A stretch of DNA of 4,320 nucleotides, taken from the IMG/VR virus record IMGVR_UViG_2663762945_000005, positions 1-4,320 of that record; one strand, 5' to 3'. The DNA comes from a virus. Its lineage: Duplodnaviria; Heunggongvirae; Uroviricota; Caudoviricetes. Position numbers and translations under genes: made by a program. The notes beneath the pieces were generated by a model. The model had not been told where the DNA came from. It did no database searches and saw only the letters and a program-made list of their open reading frames with translations. Below, one piece after another: positions 1-4,320 of the stretch; position 1 is the stretch's first letter; every line of letters begins with the position of its first letter.

Positions 1-92
1 AATTATCTTTAGTAATCACTAAACAAGCAAATACTTGACTTAATGGTTTATTAAACACTAAACTCACAAAAAAACACTAAACCGAGGAAGGT
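1..92 (+). promoter_or_regulatory. Putative early-right promoter/operator region upstream of the cro-like gene. Candidate -35 TTGACT (35-40), 18-nt spacer, candidate -10 TAAACT (59-64), RBS GAGGAAGG (84-91).
   Basis: AT-rich non-coding leader. TTGACT is a 5/6 match to the sigma70 -35 consensus and TAAACT a 4/6 match to -10, keeping the conserved T1, A2 and T6. Three direct copies of cactaaac (17-24, 56-63, 75-82; the last two extend to aaacactaaac at 53-63 and 72-82) lie in or beside the promoter elements. Imperfect palindrome tttagt-aatc-actaaa (8-23) and perfect palindrome gttta-t-taaac (46-56). Confidence 0.45.
8..23. promoter_or_regulatory. Candidate operator: 16-bp imperfect inverted repeat TTTAGT-aatc-ACTAAA.
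   Basis: The arms at 8-13 and 18-23 are exact reverse complements, separated by a 4-bp centre. It sits just upstream of the candidate -35, the usual place for a repressor operator in an immunity region. Confidence 0.35.
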
Positions 93-395
93 ATGACATT
101 AAAAGAGTTTATTAAATCATTAAGGGTTGGTGATGCTAAGAAATTCGCGGCCAGACTTGGTGTATCGCCATCTTACTTATCGCAAATGGCGTCTGGACGA
201 GCAGCTATATCTCCAACCCGCGCCCTTATGATCGAATCTGCGACGGAAGGCCAAGTAAGTAGGGTGGAGCTACGACCCCATGATTGGGAGCTTATTTGGC
301 CTGAGTATGCGAGCGGCATTCGTTTGGGGCAAACACATGTAGTTCATGCTGAAGGTGATTGTAGTGCATGCTTATCTGATGGAGTTGATTCATGA
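93..395 (+). CDS. Cro-like HTH transcriptional regulator (YdaS-family-like), 100 aa.
   Basis: ATG at 93 preceded by RBS GAGGAAGG. Predicted HTH segment AKKFAARLGVSPSYLSQMASGRAAISP. First gene of a rightward operon directly after an operator-like region; stop TGA overlaps the next gene's ATG (ATGA at 392-395). Confidence 0.7.
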   Translation: MTLKEFIKSLRVGDAKKFAARLGVSPSYLSQMASGRAAISPTRALMIESATEGQVSRVELRPHDWELIWPEYASGIRLGQTHVVHAEGDCSACLSDGVDS

Positions 396-817
396 AAATC
401 AAGCATGAACACATCCGCATGGCGATGAATGTCTGGGCGCATCCGGACGGCGAAAAAGTACCGGCTGCGAAAATTACCAAAGCGTATTTCGAGCTGGGAA
501 TGACGTTCCCGGAACTGTATGACGACAGCCATCCGGAAGCCCTGGCCCGTAATACCCAGAAAATTTTCCGTTGGCTGGATAAAGACACCCCTGATGCTGT
601 TGAAAAAATGCAGGCTCTGTTACCGGCGATCGAAAAGGCGATGCCGCCTTTGCTGGTGGCCCGTATGCGCAGCCACAGTTCTGAATATTACCGTGAGATC
701 GTCGAACGGAGGGATCGGCTGGTGAAGGATGTCGATGATTTTGTTGCGTCAGCGGTTGTTTTGTATGACCAGATGAATCGCGGCGGCCCGGCAGGGAATG
801 CTGTGGTGATGCACTAA
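392..817 (+). CDS. YdaT-family protein (CII-like regulator of Rac-type prophages), 141 aa.
   Basis: N-terminus MKIKHEHI matches my recollection of the E. coli Rac prophage YdaT N-terminus. RBS GGAG at 381-384. Translationally coupled to the upstream cro-like gene through the ATGA overlap. Position equals the cII slot. Confidence 0.7.
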   Translation: MKIKHEHIRMAMNVWAHPDGEKVPAAKITKAYFELGMTFPELYDDSHPEALARNTQKIFRWLDKDTPDAVEKMQALLPAIEKAMPPLLVARMRSHSSEYYREIVERRDRLVKDVDDFVASAVVLYDQMNRGGPAGNAVVMH

Positions 818-839
818 AAGCACGGTGTTCGGGGGTTTT

Positions 840-1802
840 ATGAGCAGCAAGCTTCATGGTCTTGTCTGGGAAGGGTGCGCCTTCACCGGCATGATCTTAT
901 CCAGGGTGGCGGTTATGGCCCGTCTTGCAGACTACAGCAATGACGAGGGTGTGTCATGGCCTGCCATTGAAACTATCCGGCGTCAGATCGGTGCAAGAAG
1001 TGAATCCACAGTGAAATCGGCTATTGCAGAACTGGCGAAAGAGGGCTGGCTGACGAAGGAAGAGCGTAAGGTCGGTGGGCGTAATGTAAGCAATATCTAT
1101 CGGCTTAATGTGGAAAAACTCGAAGCAGCTGCGGCGGCGGCGCGTGAGTCATATAAACCGAAAAGAAAAATTAGCCCGGCAAAAAATGACCCGTTAACAG
1201 TTGACCCGTCAAATATTGCCCCCTCAACGGTTGACCCGTCAAATTTTGATGGATCAACTGTTGATAAAAAACTGCCGATTAGGGGGGCGATGATTGACCC
1301 CGATCCGTCAGTATTAAAACCTGATCCATCAGATAAAAGATCTTCTTGTCCGGACGCTTCACAACCGGACCCGCAGACGGCTGAACAGGATTTTTTAACC
1401 CGACACCCTGACGCGGTTGTGTTCAGTGCGAAAAAACGCCAGTGGGGAAGTCAGGAAGATTTGGTGTGCGCACAGTGGATCTGGGGACGAATCGTGAGTC
1501 TTTACGAGCAGGCGGCCAGCGATGATGGCGAGATCACGAGACCGAAAGAACCCAACTGGACAGCATGGGCCAATGACGTTCGCACAATGCGGATGCTGGA
1601 TGGCAGAACTCACAGACAAATTTGTGAAATGTTTGGGCGTGTCCAGCGGGATTCGTTCTGGGTAAAAAACATCATGAGTCCGGGAAAACTCCGGGAAAAA
1701 TGGGATGAACTGGTTATCCGCCTGGGGTGTTCGCCTGCGCAACGTTGCGTGAATCACATTTCTGAACCGGACACTGAAATACCGCCGGGATTCAGGGGGT
1801 GA
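840..1802 (+). CDS. Phage replication initiator (lambda O-like): N-terminal winged-HTH DNA-binding domain, repetitive linker encoded by the iterons, C-terminal domain.
   Basis: N-terminal HTH-like segment ILSRVAVMARLADYSNDEGVSWPAIETIRRQIGARSESTVKSAIAELAKEGWLTKEE. The linker carries the repeated peptide TVDPSN, encoded by the DNA iterons. It lies directly upstream of a DnaC-like gene. I prefer ATG 840 (GGGGG at 831-835) over the ORF-track GTG at 825. Confidence 0.8.
   Translation: MSSKLHGLVWEGCAFTGMILSRVAVMARLADYSNDEGVSWPAIETIRRQIGARSESTVKSAIAELAKEGWLTKEERKVGGRNVSNIYRLNVEKLEAAAAAARESYKPKRKISPAKNDPLTVDPSNIAPSTVDPSNFDGSTVDKKLPIRGAMIDPDPSVLKPDPSDKRSSCPDASQPDPQTAEQDFLTRHPDAVVFSAKKRQWGSQEDLVCAQWIWGRIVSLYEQAASDDGEITRPKEPNWTAWANDVRTMRMLDGRTHRQICEMFGRVQRDSFWVKNIMSPGKLREKWDELVIRLGCSPAQRCVNHISEPDTEIPPGFRG
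1196..1342. repeat. Iteron array of a putative phage replication origin, embedded in the initiator gene: five repeats at about 30-bp (roughly three helical turns) spacing, with a GATC cluster.
   Basis: aacAgttgacccgtcaaat (1196-1214) and aacGgttgacccgtcaaat (1226-1244) match at 18 of 19 positions, with a perfect 14-bp core ttgacccgtcaaat. Degenerate copies: aactgttgat (1256-1265), ttgaccccgatccgtca (1294-1310), ctgatccatcaga (1321-1333). The core is near-palindromic (TTGAC..GTCAA). GATC at 1252, 1302, 1323 and 1339 gives four sites in 91 bp. Confidence 0.75.
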
Positions 1803-1808
1803 CGTGTC

Positions 1809-2555
1809 ATGAAAAACATTGCGGCAGTTGGGGTTCTTGAACGTATTCGCAGACTTGCACCACAGGGGGCGGTTCCACCGTACCGGACGGTGGAGGAGTG
1901 GCGGGAATGGCAACTTGCTGAAGGACGAAAACGCAGCGAGGAGATTAACCGCCAGAATCGCCAGTTGCGGGTGGAAAAAATCCTGAATCGTTCGGGCATT
2001 CAGCCTCTGCACAGCAAATGCTCGTTTGCAAATTATCAGGTGCAGAACGACGGGCAAAAATACGCGCTGAGCCAGGCCAAATCCATAGCTGACGAACTGA
2101 TGACCGGGTGCACGAATTTTGTGTTCAGCGGTAAAACCGGCACCGGGAAAAATCACCTTGCAGCGGCGATGGGCAACCGGCTGATGGTGAAGGGGCGCAG
2201 CGTGATTATCGTCACCGTTTCTGACGTCATGAGCGTGTTGCATGACAGCTACGACAACGGCAAATCCGGGGAAAAATTTTTACAGGAGCTTTGCGGGGTT
2301 GATTTGCTGGTCCTGGATGAAATAGGCGTTCAGCGGGAGACGAAAAACGAGCAGGTGGTATTGCACCAGATAATTGATCGCCGGACAGCATCACTGTGCA
2401 GTGTCGGGATGTTAACAAACCTGAATCATGCCGCAATGAGTACGCTTCTTGGTGAGAGGATTATGGACCGCATGACCATGAACGGTGGTCGATGGGTGAC
2501 GTTTAACTGGGATAGCTGGCGTCCAAATGTCAGCAATATGAGGGTTGTGAAGTAA
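1809..2555 (+). CDS. DnaC-type replicative helicase loader (phage P-analog, AAA+ ATPase), 248 aa.
   Basis: Walker A FSGKTGTGKNHLAAAMG (DnaC-type GTGKNHL). Walker B DLLVLDEIG (2301-2327). Sits immediately after the initiator gene, with ATG 7 nt past the upstream stop. Confidence 0.9.
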   Translation: MKNIAAVGVLERIRRLAPQGAVPPYRTVEEWREWQLAEGRKRSEEINRQNRQLRVEKILNRSGIQPLHSKCSFANYQVQNDGQKYALSQAKSIADELMTGCTNFVFSGKTGTGKNHLAAAMGNRLMVKGRSVIIVTVSDVMSVLHDSYDNGKSGEKFLQELCGVDLLVLDEIGVQRETKNEQVVLHQIIDRRTASLCSVGMLTNLNHAAMSTLLGERIMDRMTMNGGRWVTFNWDSWRPNVSNMRVVK

Positions 2556-2576: not shown

Positions 2577-3347
2577 ATGGAAACCGTATCTGACGCACTG
2601 AAAGCACTGAAAAAAGCCTCTTCACATGTGGTGGCAGCTCGCCTTGGAATCAGTCGTGAAGAGGCTGTCAACGAGCTGTGGGAACTCAAAAGAAATGGCG
2701 TCGTTGATAAAACTGGTCACACCTGGTTTCTGGCTGGCGAAGGTGAATCCCGGGTAACCGAAGAGCGGCCAGTAAAATCTGAAGCACAGGATATGCTGAC
2801 CGGGGAGGTCGAACAAAAAGTTACCGCAGACATGATGATTGAGTTTATCGGTCAGGATGGGGCTAAAACGTGTGAGGAACTGGCGGGTAAGTTCGGTGTC
2901 AGTACTCGCAAGGTTGCTTCCACGCTGGCGGTGGTAACCGCAACGGGGCGGCTGGCACGCGTTAATCAGAACGGTAAATTTCGTTACTGCATGCCGGGCG
3001 ATAATTTACCAGCAGAGCCGAAAGCCGCGCTGGTAACGGAAAGTGATGGTAAGGCCTTTCCTCAGCCAGCAGGTGCTGCGTTACCAGTCCGGGAAGCCGC
3101 AACACAGGAAAAAATTAAAACAGAAACTGTGGCGGACATTGTGCAGTCGTTGCCATCGTTTACCGAAACGCAAGCAGATGAGCTGATTTTTCCGTCCCTG
3201 CGCAGGGCAAACCTGGCGCTGCGCAGGGCGAAAAGTGATGTTCAGAAGTGGGAGCGAGTCTGCGCCGCGCTGCGGGAGCTGAACAAGCACCGGGATATTG
3301 TTCGACAGATTACTGATTCTTCCCGCCGTGTTGTATCGGAAAAGTGA
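2577..3347 (+). CDS. Hypothetical protein, 256 aa, with two tandem winged-helix-like segments, an Ala/Pro/Glu-rich linker and a C-terminal helical region.
   Basis: Strong RBS GGAGG (2564-2568) 8 nt before ATG 2577. Two segments of similar pattern, SSHVVAARLGISREEAVNELWELKRNGVVDKTGHTWFL and KTCEELAGKFGVSTRKVASTLAVVTATGRLARVNQNGKFRYCM. Codon usage matches the neighbouring genes. No function assignable from sequence. Confidence 0.7.
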   Translation: METVSDALKALKKASSHVVAARLGISREEAVNELWELKRNGVVDKTGHTWFLAGEGESRVTEERPVKSEAQDMLTGEVEQKVTADMMIEFIGQDGAKTCEELAGKFGVSTRKVASTLAVVTATGRLARVNQNGKFRYCMPGDNLPAEPKAALVTESDGKAFPQPAGAALPVREAATQEKIKTETVADIVQSLPSFTETQADELIFPSLRRANLALRRAKSDVQKWERVCAALRELNKHRDIVRQITDSSRRVVSEK

Positions 3348-3362: not shown

Positions 3363-3785
3363 ATGGCAAAAGTATTTACACAAGAAGAGCGAGAAAAAAT
3401 TAAAGGGCAGGTTGTTGAGCTAGTACGCCGGAGTGGGCGCGAGACGTTACGGCAACTGGAAGCCAAGACAGGTGCGACAAGATATCTGATGAGCGTTCTT
3501 GCCAGAGAGCTGGTTGCCAGTGGCGATGTATACAACTCTGGTTACGGGTTATTCCCGTCTGAACAGGCTCGTAAGGACTGGCAAAATGCCCGCAAAAAAC
3601 TCTCAAGGGCAAAGGTGAAGAAACCTGCAGTGGTTGATCCGGACCTTATCTGGTCGTTACCAGACGGCGAAATACGCCGCTACGACAGGCGCCTAAACAT
3701 AATCTGTCGCGAGTGCCGGAAGAGTGAAGCTATGCAGCGTGTACTGGCTTTCTATCAGGGTAATTTTCAGGAGGCGGTACTGTGA
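3363..3785 (+). CDS. Hypothetical small protein, 140 aa, with an N-terminal HTH-like segment and a C-terminal CxxC motif.
   Basis: GGAGG (3353-3357) 5 nt upstream of ATG 3363, which I prefer to the ORF-track TTG at 3348. HTH-like ETLRQLEAKTGATRYLMSVLARELVASGDV; C-terminal IICRECRK. Stop TGA at 3783-3785. Confidence 0.65.
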   Translation: MAKVFTQEEREKIKGQVVELVRRSGRETLRQLEAKTGATRYLMSVLARELVASGDVYNSGYGLFPSEQARKDWQNARKKLSRAKVKKPAVVDPDLIWSLPDGEIRRYDRRLNIICRECRKSEAMQRVLAFYQGNFQEAVL

Positions 3786-3842
3786 GTGAAATTAGCTATC
3801 AGGCTTCAATTACCGCTGGCATTCGCATCAAAGGAGAGGAGC

Positions 3843-4199
3843 ATGGAAATAAAACCAGAGGATGAGTTAAGCAATATCGTTTTATTTCCGGTAAAAGAGG
3901 ATGACCCTCGTAATCAGGTTAATTTTCTTTATGAGCCATCGGAAAGACCATATTGCCATCACGCCTCTGTTCGGGTTGACGAAAAAGAGCGTCAGGTCCG
4001 CTGTAAAATCTGCGGTGCAGTTGTGGAGCCGTTTGACTGGATGCTCTCTGTGGCGAAAAGAGAAACCAGACTGGCAGATGATGTAAGGCTATTGCGCCAG
4101 GAGGAACAGGAAAGGCGGAAAAATATAGAAAAGTTAATTCAGATTGAGCGTAACGCGAAAGCGCGGATACGCAGGGCGACAAAATCCAGAACTGAATAA
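3843..4199 (+). CDS. Hypothetical small protein, 118 aa, with a putative zinc-binding motif and a basic C-terminal coiled coil.
   Basis: RBS AGGAG (3832-3836) 6 nt before ATG 3843. The alternative in-frame GTG at 3786 abuts the upstream stop but has a weaker 11-nt spacing to AGGAGG (3769-3774). Motif YCHH-x13-C-x2-C; C-terminus rich in R/K/E (LRQEEQERRKNIEKLIQIERNAKARIRR). Confidence 0.6.
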   Translation: MEIKPEDELSNIVLFPVKEDDPRNQVNFLYEPSERPYCHHASVRVDEKERQVRCKICGAVVEPFDWMLSVAKRETRLADDVRLLRQEEQERRKNIEKLIQIERNAKARIRRATKSRTE

Positions 4200-4249
4200 A
4201 TAAATTTAGCGCTGTAAATAAAATCTAATCCTTAACTGGAGGTATATTT

Positions 4250-4320
4250 ATGTTAAATACACAGAAAGCCATTAATGCGGAAAAATATAACGAGTGGGCA
4301 AGAAAATTCTCTGAGCAGAT
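4250..4320 (+). CDS. 5' end of a further hypothetical gene (MLNTQKAINAEKYNEWARKFSEQ...), truncated by the window edge.
   Basis: RBS CTGGAGGT (4237-4244) 5 nt upstream of ATG 4250. Open to the end of the window, same strand as the operon. Confidence 0.5.
   Translation, partial: MLNTQKAINAEKYNEWARKFSEQ

Follow-up and report, generated by a model that had tools for sequence, protein, structure and literature searches.

The window, that is, the whole 4,320-nucleotide stretch of DNA analysed here, carries the right part of a repressor–cro intergenic region followed by a series of rightward genes (Table 1). The product of the first gene, ydaS, matched Pfam PF15943 (6.1e-12, 45.6 bits against a cut-off of 30) and also HTH_3, and shares 98% identity with the CP-933P structure 8c7k in PDB ("Phage antirepressor protein Cro"); two substitutions, T37A and A58V, distinguish it from the CP-933P protein, and the PDB 8co2 construct spans YdaS residues 1–76 only. 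The product of the second gene, ydaT, matched Pfam PF06254 (2.8e-10, 40.9 bits against a cut-off of 21), and its residues 2–141 match PDB 8bt1 (CP-933P) with 100% identity and 3c4r with about 84%. Three observations back the ydaT start at 392: a Shine-Dalgarno sequence, the lengths of the homologues (almost all of the close homologues listed have 141 aa), and the crystallised protein, which has the same start. Other cro alleles all contain purine-rich, Shine-Dalgarno-like runs at the corresponding position.

Homologues of the O-like protein encoded downstream of ydaT are annotated as "DNA replication protein O / primosomal protein I", and iteron-like repeats were found at approximately 1196–1262 inside the O-like gene. 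The ydaT stop codon (TAA, 815–817) lies 22 nt from the O-like ATG at 840, as a previous reading of the sequence alone (hereafter the sequence-only reading) had noted, and the RefSeq annotation of a 98.3%-identical relative gives the same O-like start. The spacer between the two genes is identical in 69 of 80 viral contigs, and 7 more differ in G-run length only. The relative, an ST131 prophage (L001), stands in here for the window's own upstream flank. In L001, cro is the first gene behind PR and is divergent from a repressor homologue 97 nt upstream, which is the position of a Cro-type gene, and the order is repressor-relB/relE, cro, ydaT, O-like, DnaC-like, DUF1627, DUF977 and then a Q-like gene. 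Judged from the window ORFs, Pfam and the L001 annotation, the locus thus has the synteny of a lambdoid immunity-replication region, with a repressor, divergent cro, a gene of cII function, an O-like gene, a helicase loader, nin-like genes and Q. Matches to the window were found in 4,728 of 5,426 complete E. coli genomes, indicating very common prophages, and the 3′ end of the window (3814–4320) is 99% identical to Stx2a phages.

Table 1 Genes and sequence elements of the window
Feature	Position	Strand	Basis
Right part of the 97-bp repressor/cro intergenic region	1–92	+	promoter scan, repeats, published primers
ydaS, Cro analogue, HTH_XRE/YdaS-family repressor, 100 aa	93–395	+	Pfam, PDB identity
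Published PRE933P reporter fragment, leftward promoter	302–420	−	primers F-PRE/R-PRE
Shine-Dalgarno sequence GGAG of ydaT, within the cro 3′ end	381–384	+	7 nt before ATG; read from sequence
YdaT-box/operator OM, TTGATTCATGAAAATCAA (TTGATT-CATGAA-AATCAA)	385–402		exact match to published TTGATTN6AATCAA
TGA in three frames (386–388, 393–395, 406–408), in and just after the box	386–408	+	read from sequence
ydaT, CII functional analogue, POU-like HTH tetramer, 141 aa	392–817	+	Pfam PF06254, PDB 8bt1
ydaT/O-like spacer, 22 nt, with GGGGG Shine-Dalgarno sequence at 831–835	818–839	+	fold, composition and promoter scans
O-like replication initiator, HTH_36/DnaD_N-like N-terminus	840–1802	+	Pfam, homologue annotations
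DnaC/IstB-like helicase loader	1809–2555	+	Pfam IstB_IS21 7.3e-19, Bac_DnaA; 6 nt after O-like stop
DUF1627/YdaW-like	2577–3347	+	Pfam, PHROGs; gap 21 nt
DUF977/LygF-like	3363–3785	+	Pfam, PHROGs; gap 15 nt
Zinc-ribbon protein	3843–4199	+	Pfam, PHROGs; gap 57 nt

Repression of the PR promoter

A promoter scan placed a PR933P-type promoter in the intergenic region (−35 TTGACT at 35–40, −10 TAAACT at 59–64); operator repeats lie at 8–31 and 47–70, with copies of AAACACTAAAC at 53–63 and 72–82. The published PR933P cloning primers map to approximately positions 1–70 with one mismatch. Footprints of PaaR2 and YdaS on the PR region have been published, and PR933P is repressed by both proteins (PMC8630535). 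The sequence-only reading had the replication genes transcribed constitutively from the early promoter; because PaaR2 and YdaS repress PR, this is wrong, and such expression is better described as immediate-early and lacking a delayed-early checkpoint. PR, which is repressed by the CI analogue PaaR2 and by YdaS, would drive a single, tightly packed polycistron comprising ydaS, ydaT, the O-like initiator, the DnaC-like loader and further early genes. The idea of one read-through transcript is borne out by published work for its first part, since gfp placed after ydaT was expressed from a plasmid carrying the immunity region only; for the second part, we infer that the O-like and DnaC-like genes are co-transcribed with cro. 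No transcript data on co-induction of the ydaU/ydaV-type (O-like, DnaC-like) genes were found in the Rac papers searched.

The YdaT operator at the cro–ydaT junction

The Cro-like and CII-like genes overlap by ATGA at 392–395 (ATG at 392–394, TGA at 393–395), with both ORFs as originally called. Since the 4-nt ATGA is the commonest overlap type among bacterial operons, the overlap alone is unremarkable. A description of the junction as a mere lack of room is incomplete: the junction carries the YdaT-box, or operator OM, which straddles the end of cro and the beginning of ydaT and is contained in the PRE933P fragment. The box matches the operator of the family, (T/A)TGATT-N6-AATCAA over the gene's own start codon, exactly. 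Binding of YdaT to OM has been demonstrated by DNase I footprinting and ITC (PMC9986795), and in Rac, too, this box covers the ATG of ydaT (PMC11879457). The box started at ATG−7 at every 141-aa YdaT locus examined, and this register is common to Tritos, 673R7, Rac-SA53, pPE4, K-12 Rac and a Klebsiella phage. As a lone pattern its occurrence is within chance, at least one match with three or fewer mismatches being present in 186 of 200 shuffles of the window; the weight lies on the exact match at the exact position, which is the published site.

The primers F-PRE and R-PRE (supplement of PMC8630535) match the window at 420–401 (reverse complement) and 302–320. The promoter that they delimit, PRE933P, is silent by itself and switched on by YdaT (PMC8630535). 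Published work on the identical protein shows that YdaT, which needs tetramerisation for DNA binding, activates a leftward PRE-type promoter serving the repressor operon; given the sequence identity, the protein encoded here would do so from the box at 385–402. The two CP-933P papers differ in where they place PRE relative to OM. A −10/−35 candidate on the minus strand (332–304) was weak and situated at the extreme edge of the published fragment, and was not adopted.

Absence of lambda-type nutR and tR1

Lambda has nutR and tR1 between cro and cII, as the sequence-only reading correctly stated, in a 118-nt gap annotated with rutA, nutR and rutB. Its argument that there is no room for them between the Cro-like and CII-like genes holds for the window, where the genes overlap by 4 nt and neither a boxB nor rut-like composition was detected. 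In seven further YdaT-type loci the cro-to-ydaT gap lay between −17 and +22 nt, and in mEp237 and HK639 it was +2 and +29 nt, as against +118 nt in lambda. Diverse YdaT-type loci were drawn from a phage collection; searches for homologous proteins and viral contigs listed only close relatives (at least 73% identical). Such tight cro–cII spacing with no nutR characterises the YdaT-type lineage as a whole and is ordinary there.

The further claim that the window contains no hairpin followed by a T-run is essentially right. The terminator scan gave one weak match against 4.4 ± 2.3 in shuffles, a deficit that is not significant; this match (158–170) is a 5-bp stem within cro and was rejected, given that shuffles yield more matches. 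The best T-run-anchored hairpins, including 796–835, folded no better than shuffles (z −0.7 to +0.2). The hairpin at 796–835, followed by GGGGGUUUU, was rejected as an attenuator before the O-like gene (z = −0.70, with 49 of 200 shuffles folding as well); furthermore, its stem lies 5 nt from the 4-U run, its loop holds the ydaT stop, and the G-run is the Shine-Dalgarno sequence of the O-like gene. As an argument on tR1, the missing hairpin is invalid: because lambda tR1 is Rho-dependent, with rut sites annotated there, the absence of a hairpin and T-run says nothing about a tR1 analogue. The apt tests for such an analogue are untranslated space and rut-like composition, with C in excess of G.

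A scan of C and G content in 78-nt windows, a compositional proxy only, detected no rut-like C-rich/G-poor signature at the cro/ydaT junction (C 15–26%, G 24–28%) or at the ydaT/O junction (C 15–22%, G 35–37%). In the lambda control, the 78-nt segment with the most pronounced C-rich/G-poor composition in the PR operon coincided exactly with the rut region of tR1 (31% C, 9% G). In the ydaT/O spacer there was neither a terminator nor a rut-like stretch nor an oop-like antisense unit, and no minus-strand promoter or terminator was found after ydaT by the scan that recovers lambda p_oop and t_oop. No lambda-type boxB was detected in the window or in the PR operon of the relative (10 kb) with a pattern of lambda/P22 type only, which recovers lambda nutR and nutL, and boxA matches in the window were at chance level only. 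Rfam gave no match on the window. This null is uninformative, since Rfam has no nut or put models and was also blank on lambda (nutR, nutL) and HK639 (annotated putL-like RNA), and the custom boxB pattern validated on lambda was therefore used instead.

Of the marks of lambda-type antitermination, neither a nutR in an untranslated spacer nor a rut-like region of a Rho-dependent terminator was found. With no untranslated cro–cII spacer, the lineage would have neither nutR nor Rho-dependent tR1, and the CII analogue and, by extension, the replication genes would be immediate-early. Early-right expression would be gated at PR only, with the addition of convergent PRE transcription once YdaT accumulates. 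Intragenic Rho termination could still occur in the operon under poor translation.

Antitermination and the route to Q

The upstream flank, represented by L001, was searched for an N-like gene with profile libraries and an arginine-rich-motif heuristic, and no recognisable N was found in the PL operon. The PL ORFs comprise DUF1391/YdfA-like, DicF, DicB, DUF1482 and unknowns; none was assigned to a transcription-regulation PHROG, and no genuine ORF among them carries an N-terminal arginine-rich motif as expected of N. A novel antiterminator protein could lie among those of unknown function. The proposal that N-type antitermination does not act at cro/ydaT is sustained insofar as no signs of N, boxB or nutR were present; we infer, beyond this, that it is wholly absent in the lineage. 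The text-searched CP-933P and Rac literature on ydaS–ydaT contains no mention of antitermination, nut or transcription terminators.

Antitermination might exist in another form or place, as a cis-acting put-like RNA, a nut site embedded within a gene or a non-homologous analogue of N from the PL operon, and RNA polymerase modified in this way would pass later terminators, for example that after hokD, toward Q. In L001, the Q-like gene (phrog_753, at 20654) has an STnc100/tR′-like terminator downstream, and a strong plus-strand terminator (L001 18845–18862, after hokD/sok) separates it from the replication genes, so that something must deliver transcription to Q. A precedent is HK639, which combines a CII distantly related to YdaT and tight cro–cII spacing with an annotated putL-like antiterminator RNA in the PL operon, and several PL ORFs in L001 have no known function. 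However, no intergenic gap from PR to 4199 exceeds 57 nt, and with transcription assumed to start about 7 nt after the −10 the cro leader measures only some 28 nt, so that a put RNA of about 70 nt would not fit outside coding sequence. The negative boxB result across 10 kb of the PR operon and the failure of any junction structure to beat shuffles likewise make such a mechanism unlikely. Even if true, it would restore no terminator between cro and ydaT.

YdaT as a regulator of the operon

Bound to the box over its own start codon, YdaT might also act as a roadblock or autorepressor, standing in for tR1 to limit ydaT and the replication genes once it accumulates. The box falls within the unit transcribed from PR, directly on top of the ydaT Shine-Dalgarno sequence and start, and the footprint widens to about 95 nt at high YdaT concentration. 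In addition, the YdaT-activated PRE is convergent with PR, and in Rac basal reverse-promoter activity cuts PydaST output approximately twofold. We nevertheless hold this role to be quite improbable, as YdaT supplied in trans had little effect on Rac ydaT′-lacZ with either a wild-type or a mutated box (PMC11879457 Fig. 5C).

That YdaS and YdaT form a type II toxin-antitoxin pair, with the 4-nt overlap as stoichiometric coupling, is scarcely tenable: the Pfam names "YdaS_toxin" and "YdaT_toxin", the RefSeq label "toxin YdaT family protein" and the toxicity of Rac YdaS and YdaT on overexpression point in that direction, but CP-933P YdaT, identical to the protein here, showed no toxicity, both proteins bind DNA as regulators, their structures having been solved and their operators mapped, Rac YdaT toxicity is reported together with its activation of host rcsA and not as a classical toxin activity, the synteny fits a lambdoid immunity region, and a genuine pair, relB/relE (equivalent to paaA2/parE2), is located on the repressor's other side. 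The sequence-only reading had favoured Cro and CII analogues over a toxin-antitoxin module, and this is published for these very proteins: PaaR2, YdaS and YdaT are analogues of CI, Cro and CII, and the choice between toxicity and regulation is already answered by CP-933P YdaT, which is non-toxic and activates PRE933P (PMC8630535). The lingering "toxin YdaS/YdaT" annotations mislead; the Pfam names are historical, and the two genes are to be read as Cro and CII analogues.

The junction as a possible module joint

In the regulatory reading, in which YdaT acts from the junction on PRE, the same short stretch has a second property. Because TGA occurs in all frames within 386–408, an upstream cro in any frame ends between −4 and +17 nt of the ydaT ATG. 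At least nine different cro alleles are joined to ydaT alleles that are at least 96% identical, and the overlap is always 4 or 17 nt, owing to this three-frame TGA island. ATGA and GCATGA are invariant in 15 of 15 aligned junctions, and between phages with different cro alleles similarity starts abruptly at GATTC-ATG, in the box. The island of about 28 nt is a recombination joint fusing different repressor–cro immunity cassettes to the ydaT–replication module.

We tentatively propose that the island (GATTC-ATG-AAAATCA(A/G)GCATGA(A/G)CACATC) may be a dedicated joint, combining the operator, the ydaT start and a three-frame stop trap, by which cassettes can be swapped with the coupling kept, in a lineage without a delayed-early checkpoint where Q is reached by an undescribed route. 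If this is true, the coupling would be both transcriptional and translational for any swapped-in repressor–cro immunity cassette, and a nutR/tR1 spacer could not be reconciled with the module-joint design. Taken together with the absence of any recognisable N, the design would also mean that abundant E. coli prophages run their early-right operon without a delayed-early checkpoint and reach Q through the hok/sok terminator by a route new to description.

As a whole, the window is likely to be the start of the PR operon of a CP-933P/Sp12-type, Rac-like lambdoid E. coli prophage, with no nutR/tR1 and with a junction that is a cis-element. The genes, structures, operator and Cro/CII-like roles are already published for a virtually identical locus, including the protein identities, YdaT binding, PRE activation, YdaT non-toxicity and ydaS–ydaT read-through into a downstream reporter. 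The present analysis adds the box position, the mosaic joint, the compact spacing in relatives, and the lack of any nut, rut or terminator signature. The gain for discovery is small, and consists of two modest gains, the annotation reading and the apparent absence of the checkpoint. Such common E. coli prophages appear to do without the N-dependent temporal checkpoint of lambda, and its textbook cascade should therefore not be carried over to them.

Comparison with known systems

The locus is essentially the same as that of CP-933P/Sp12 of E. coli O157:H7 (paaR2-paaA2-parE2/ydaS-ydaT; Jurenas 2021, PMC8630535; Prolic-Kalinsek 2023, PMC9986795). The OM box and the gene order are the same, the PR and PRE primers have at most one mismatch on the window, and a relB/relE-type pair adjoins the repressor in the ST131 relative. 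In contrast, the window is not an exact copy, over its full 4.3 kb, of any complete E. coli genome searched.

Rac of E. coli K-12 (racR-ydaS-ydaT-ydaU-ydaV-ydaW) shares the synteny with compact gaps (22, 12, 6 and 22 nt), a YdaT-box (ATGATTCATGAAAATCAA) over the ydaT ATG, activation by YdaT of a reverse promoter for the repressor, and a PL operon without an annotated N gene. Rac ydaST is bicistronic, ydaT having no promoter of its own, and the 29-fold activation of the reverse promoter depends on the box (PMC11879457). On the other hand, Rac YdaT is only about 31% identical, its cro and repressor are other alleles, and its ydaS and ydaT lie 22 nt apart, whereas they overlap in the window; Rac YdaT also binds the racR–ydaS intergenic region and host rcsA, and is toxic when expressed.

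HK022 and HK639, which are N-less and use RNA-based antitermination (HK639 as annotated in NC_016158), resemble the window in having no N/nutR between cro and the CII-type gene, and in HK639 the CII is distantly YdaT-related and the cro–cII gap is only 29 nt. HK639 differs in its annotated putL-like RNA downstream of pL; none comparable was found here, and the PR operon leaves no non-coding room for one.

Lambda differs in its 118-nt cro–cII spacer (rutA, boxB/nutR, rutB) and Rho-dependent tR1, undetected here, and in N after PL, oop after cII and tR2 after ren, none of which could be detected. YdaT and lambda CII have unrelated structures, and the YdaT site is an inverted repeat, whereas that of lambda CII is direct. 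What the two systems share is the order repressor, Cro, CII-function, O and P, divergent PRM and PR, a CII-type activator site with a PRE-type leftward promoter at the cro/cII boundary, ori-like repeats within the O-type gene and, in the relatives of the window, Q-type late control downstream.

Identity and context of the locus

The Cro-like protein was assigned by Pfam to the YdaS family (PF15943) and the CII-like protein to the YdaT family (PF06254). YdaT residues 2–141 are 100% identical to PDB 8bt1, YdaS is 98% identical to PDB 8c7k with two substitutions, and the published PR933P and PRE933P cloning primers align to the window sequence with no more than one mismatch. In CP-933P, PaaR2 behaves as the counterpart of CI, YdaS of Cro and YdaT of CII (Jurenas et al. 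2021, PMC8630535), a Cro/CII reading argued earlier from synteny (Jobling 2018, PMC5917428), and the YdaT structure was solved by Prolic-Kalinsek et al. 2023 (PMC9986795). This locus has been described before, and the regulatory reading favoured from sequence alone is established in print for these very proteins.

E. coli chromosomal prophages match the whole window, with matches in 4,728 of the 5,426 complete genomes; at full length, the best of them (98.3% identity) come from ST131 strains. One of these, L001 (NZ_CP015074), is a lambdoid prophage inserted adjoining potC. Its leftward part holds int, xis, exonuclease, DUF1482, dicB, DicF and small ORFs, and a PL promoter with the hexamers of PR is followed by relE/relB and a 123-aa repressor. 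Rightward, 97 nt past the repressor, come cro, ydaT and the O-like, DnaC-like, DUF1627 and DUF977 genes, and hokD/sok and nin-like genes lie further downstream, together with a Q-like antiterminator gene and an STnc100/tR'-type terminator. Unlike its L001 counterpart, which is an annotated pseudogene, the window's DUF977/LygF-like gene is intact.

Features of the window and of L001, with ORFs taken from the ORF map
Sequence	Feature	Coordinates	Remark
Window	24-nt direct repeats	8-31; 47-70	around PR
Window	AAACACTAAAC	53-63; 72-82	variant at 14-24
Window	PR	35-64	
Window	Cro-like ORF	93-395	100 aa
Window	Weak terminator match	158-170	5-bp stem inside cro
Window	PRE933P reporter fragment	302-420	leftward
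Window	YdaS codons 77-100	322-392	
Window	Exact OM	385-402	
Window	YdaT-like ORF	392-817	141 aa; stop 815-817
Window	Best T-run hairpin	796-835	rejected
Window	O-like ORF	840-1802	ATG at 840
Window	Iteron-like repeats	1196-1262	GTTGACCCGTCAAAT at 1200-1214, 1230-1244
Window	DnaC-like ORF	1809-2555	
Window	DUF1627 ORF	2577-3347	
Window	DUF977 ORF	3363-3785	
Window	Stx2a-phage similarity	3814-4320	
Window	Zinc-ribbon protein ORF	3843-4199	
L001	Predicted PL leader	10930-11015	C-rich
L001	PL-type promoter	11020-11047	minus strand
L001	DUF977 pseudogene	15363-15785	internal stop
L001	hokD/sok cassette	18453-18862	ends in strong terminator, 18845-18862, + strand
L001	Q-like antiterminator gene	20654-21208	
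L001	STnc100/tR'-type terminator	21785-21989	

nutR, tR1 and N

The sequence-only reading held that cro and ydaT overlap, leaving no room for nutR or tR1. The ORF map agrees on the geometry: ATGA is common to both genes (ATG 392–394, TGA 393–395), 22 nt separate the ydaT stop from the O-like ATG, and the intergenic gaps over 4.1 kb are all small (−4, 22, 6, 21, 15 and 57 nt). The ydaT start is backed by GGAG at 381–384, by the crystallised protein and by homologue length, 141 aa being that of almost all close YdaT homologues among the matches listed. The lambda cro–cII gap holds rutA, boxB (nutR) and rutB. A missing hairpin and T-run had been taken as evidence against tR1; this criterion is the wrong one, because tR1 is Rho-dependent. 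Three tests were applied instead, rut-like composition, boxB and an N gene, with lambda as positive control. In a 78-nt composition scan, the most C-rich, G-poor stretch of the lambda PR operon coincided exactly with the rut region of tR1 (C 31%, G 9%). No rut-like signature was found at the cro/ydaT junction (C 15–26%, G 24–28%) or the ydaT/O junction (C 15–22%, G 35–37%), and the sole C-rich stretch of the window, at about 1297, falls within the translated O-like gene. A boxB pattern (5-bp stem, GNRA-like loop) picked out nutR and nutL in lambda with no other match close by; it had zero matches in the window and in 10 kb of the L001 PR operon, and boxA-like matches were at chance level. The L001 PL-operon ORFs were unknown-function PHROGs or DicB/DicF, none with an N-terminal arginine-rich motif. 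Composition, boxB, boxA and N-gene tests thus bear out the absence of nutR/tR1 at cro/ydaT, and neither an N-like gene among the L001 PL ORFs nor nut sites in the boxB scan of window and L001 were recognised. The empty Rfam result for the window carries no weight, because Rfam was also blank for lambda and for HK639 with its annotated putL-like RNA. A text search of three papers, PMC8630535 and PMC11879457 among them, found no mention of the missing nutR.

The terminator scan of the window gave one weak match, in keeping with the earlier statement that no terminator is present; shuffles gave 4.4 ± 2.3 matches, so this count is not significantly low. In a hairpin search anchored on every T-run, the best candidate, followed by GGGGGUUUU, folded no better than dinucleotide shuffles, and this and four other segments showed no excess stability (z −0.70 to +0.23). 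Run on lambda as a control, the promoter and terminator scan picked up tR2 as well as both the promoter and the terminator of oop; the window showed no counterpart of them.

Two side observations concern composition and repeats. The L001 PL hexamers are identical to those of PR (TTGACT/TAAACT), and the predicted leader of the PL transcript, ccaacccaccccgccccacagaacgc, which precedes a DUF1391/YdfA-like ORF, is markedly rich in C; Rho might load there on the leftward transcript, as at a rut site. Within the O-like gene, the GTTGACCCGTCAAAT copies sit in an imperfect inverted repeat of 33 nt, and the iteron-like repeats adjoin the window's most C-rich stretch (~1297–1374); by analogy with lambda, the initiator gene probably contains the replication origin here.

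Control of the early operon

Transcription of the replication genes had been called constitutive, wrongly, because PR is regulated by PaaR2 and YdaS and a convergent PRE is fired by YdaT. In CP-933P, PR933P and PL933P are repressed by PaaR2 and YdaS, both footprinting the 97-bp intergenic region, and leftward PRE933P is silent unless activated by YdaT (PMC8630535). The repeats at 8–82 overlap and extend past the −10 element and agree with the mixed direct and inverted operators described for PaaR2/YdaS.

We propose that, once PaaR2 repression is lifted, PR would transcribe cro, ydaT, the O-like, DnaC-like and following genes as one unit, meeting no delayed-early checkpoint; control would sit at PR, via PaaR2 and YdaS, and YdaT, as it builds up, would bind its box and fire convergent PRE. 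For ydaS–ydaT, read-through is answered by published reporter and RT-PCR data: the Rac pair is bicistronic, ydaT lacking a dedicated promoter (Wons et al. 2025, PMC11879457), and gfp downstream of ydaT was expressed from a plasmid with the immunity region only (PMC8630535). That the transcript extends into the replication genes is suggested by the short gaps (22 nt and 6 nt) and by the lack of any promoter, terminator or rut signature. A cryptic antitermination system elsewhere is unlikely. The strong L001 terminator past hokD, downstream of the replication genes and upstream of the Q-like gene, speaks for it, and the searches turned up no N, nut or put element; such a system would still place no terminator between cro and ydaT. 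That a YdaT roadblock replaces tR1 is more doubtful again and is disfavoured by Rac data, YdaT in trans hardly altering ydaT'-lacZ expression (PMC11879457). A toxin-antitoxin pair is highly improbable, being refuted by the literature, which also answers the toxicity question raised earlier: CP-933P YdaT is not toxic (PMC8630535).

The cro/ydaT junction as operator and joint

The junction is also a cis-element and a mosaic joint, which the sequence-only reading overlooked. The high-affinity YdaT operator OM, 5'-TTGATTN6AATCAA-3', was footprinted at the ydaS/ydaT border (PMC9986795), and its exact sequence, TTGATTCATGAAAATCAA, lies across the ATGA overlap. In Rac, the box ATGATTCATGAAAATCAA covers the ydaT ATG, and 29-fold activation of the reverse promoter requires it (PMC11879457). 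Among 80 viral contigs with YdaT at least 96% identical to that of the window, at least nine unrelated cro alleles (71–114 aa) precede ydaT, all ending 4 or 17 nt inside it and none leaving a spacer. In an ATG-anchored alignment, similarity begins sharply at GATTC-ATG. The first ~22 nt of ydaT are kept between CP-933P-type and Rac-type genes (~31% protein identity), while both flanks diverge. This island has TGA in all three frames (386–388, 393–395, 406–408); therefore any upstream ORF stops there. The overlap results from this conserved joint and is no isolated quirk of the window. Residual interest lies in the YdaT-box island as a possible module joint and in the transcription route to Q.

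The C-terminal 24 residues of YdaS (77–100) are outside the crystallised construct 8co2 (1–76), and their codons fall inside both the PRE933P fragment and the YdaT footprint in its extended form; this tail may be chiefly regulatory DNA that is translated, which would fit the range of cro allele lengths. The last 500 nt of the window share 99% identity with several Stx2a-converting phages and phage ArgO145, which match the rest poorly; a further mosaic boundary seems to lie near the zinc-ribbon ORF start.

Comparison with relatives and lambda

From the cro stop, ydaT starts at −4 nt in the window, Tritos, vB_EcoS-673R7 and pPE4, −17 nt in Klebsiella phage ST405-OXA48phi1.2, +10 nt in Rac-SA53 and +22 nt in K-12 Rac; the distantly related CII genes start at +2 nt in mEp237 and +29 nt in HK639, and lambda cII at +118 nt. 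No N gene is annotated in these relatives within the stretches covered. Short spacing with no nutR thus characterises the lineage and is ordinary for the group, and the absence of nutR is lineage-wide and unsurprising. The original observation is confirmed, its interpretation partly supported. HK639 carries an annotated putL-like RNA in its PL operon in place of an N gene.
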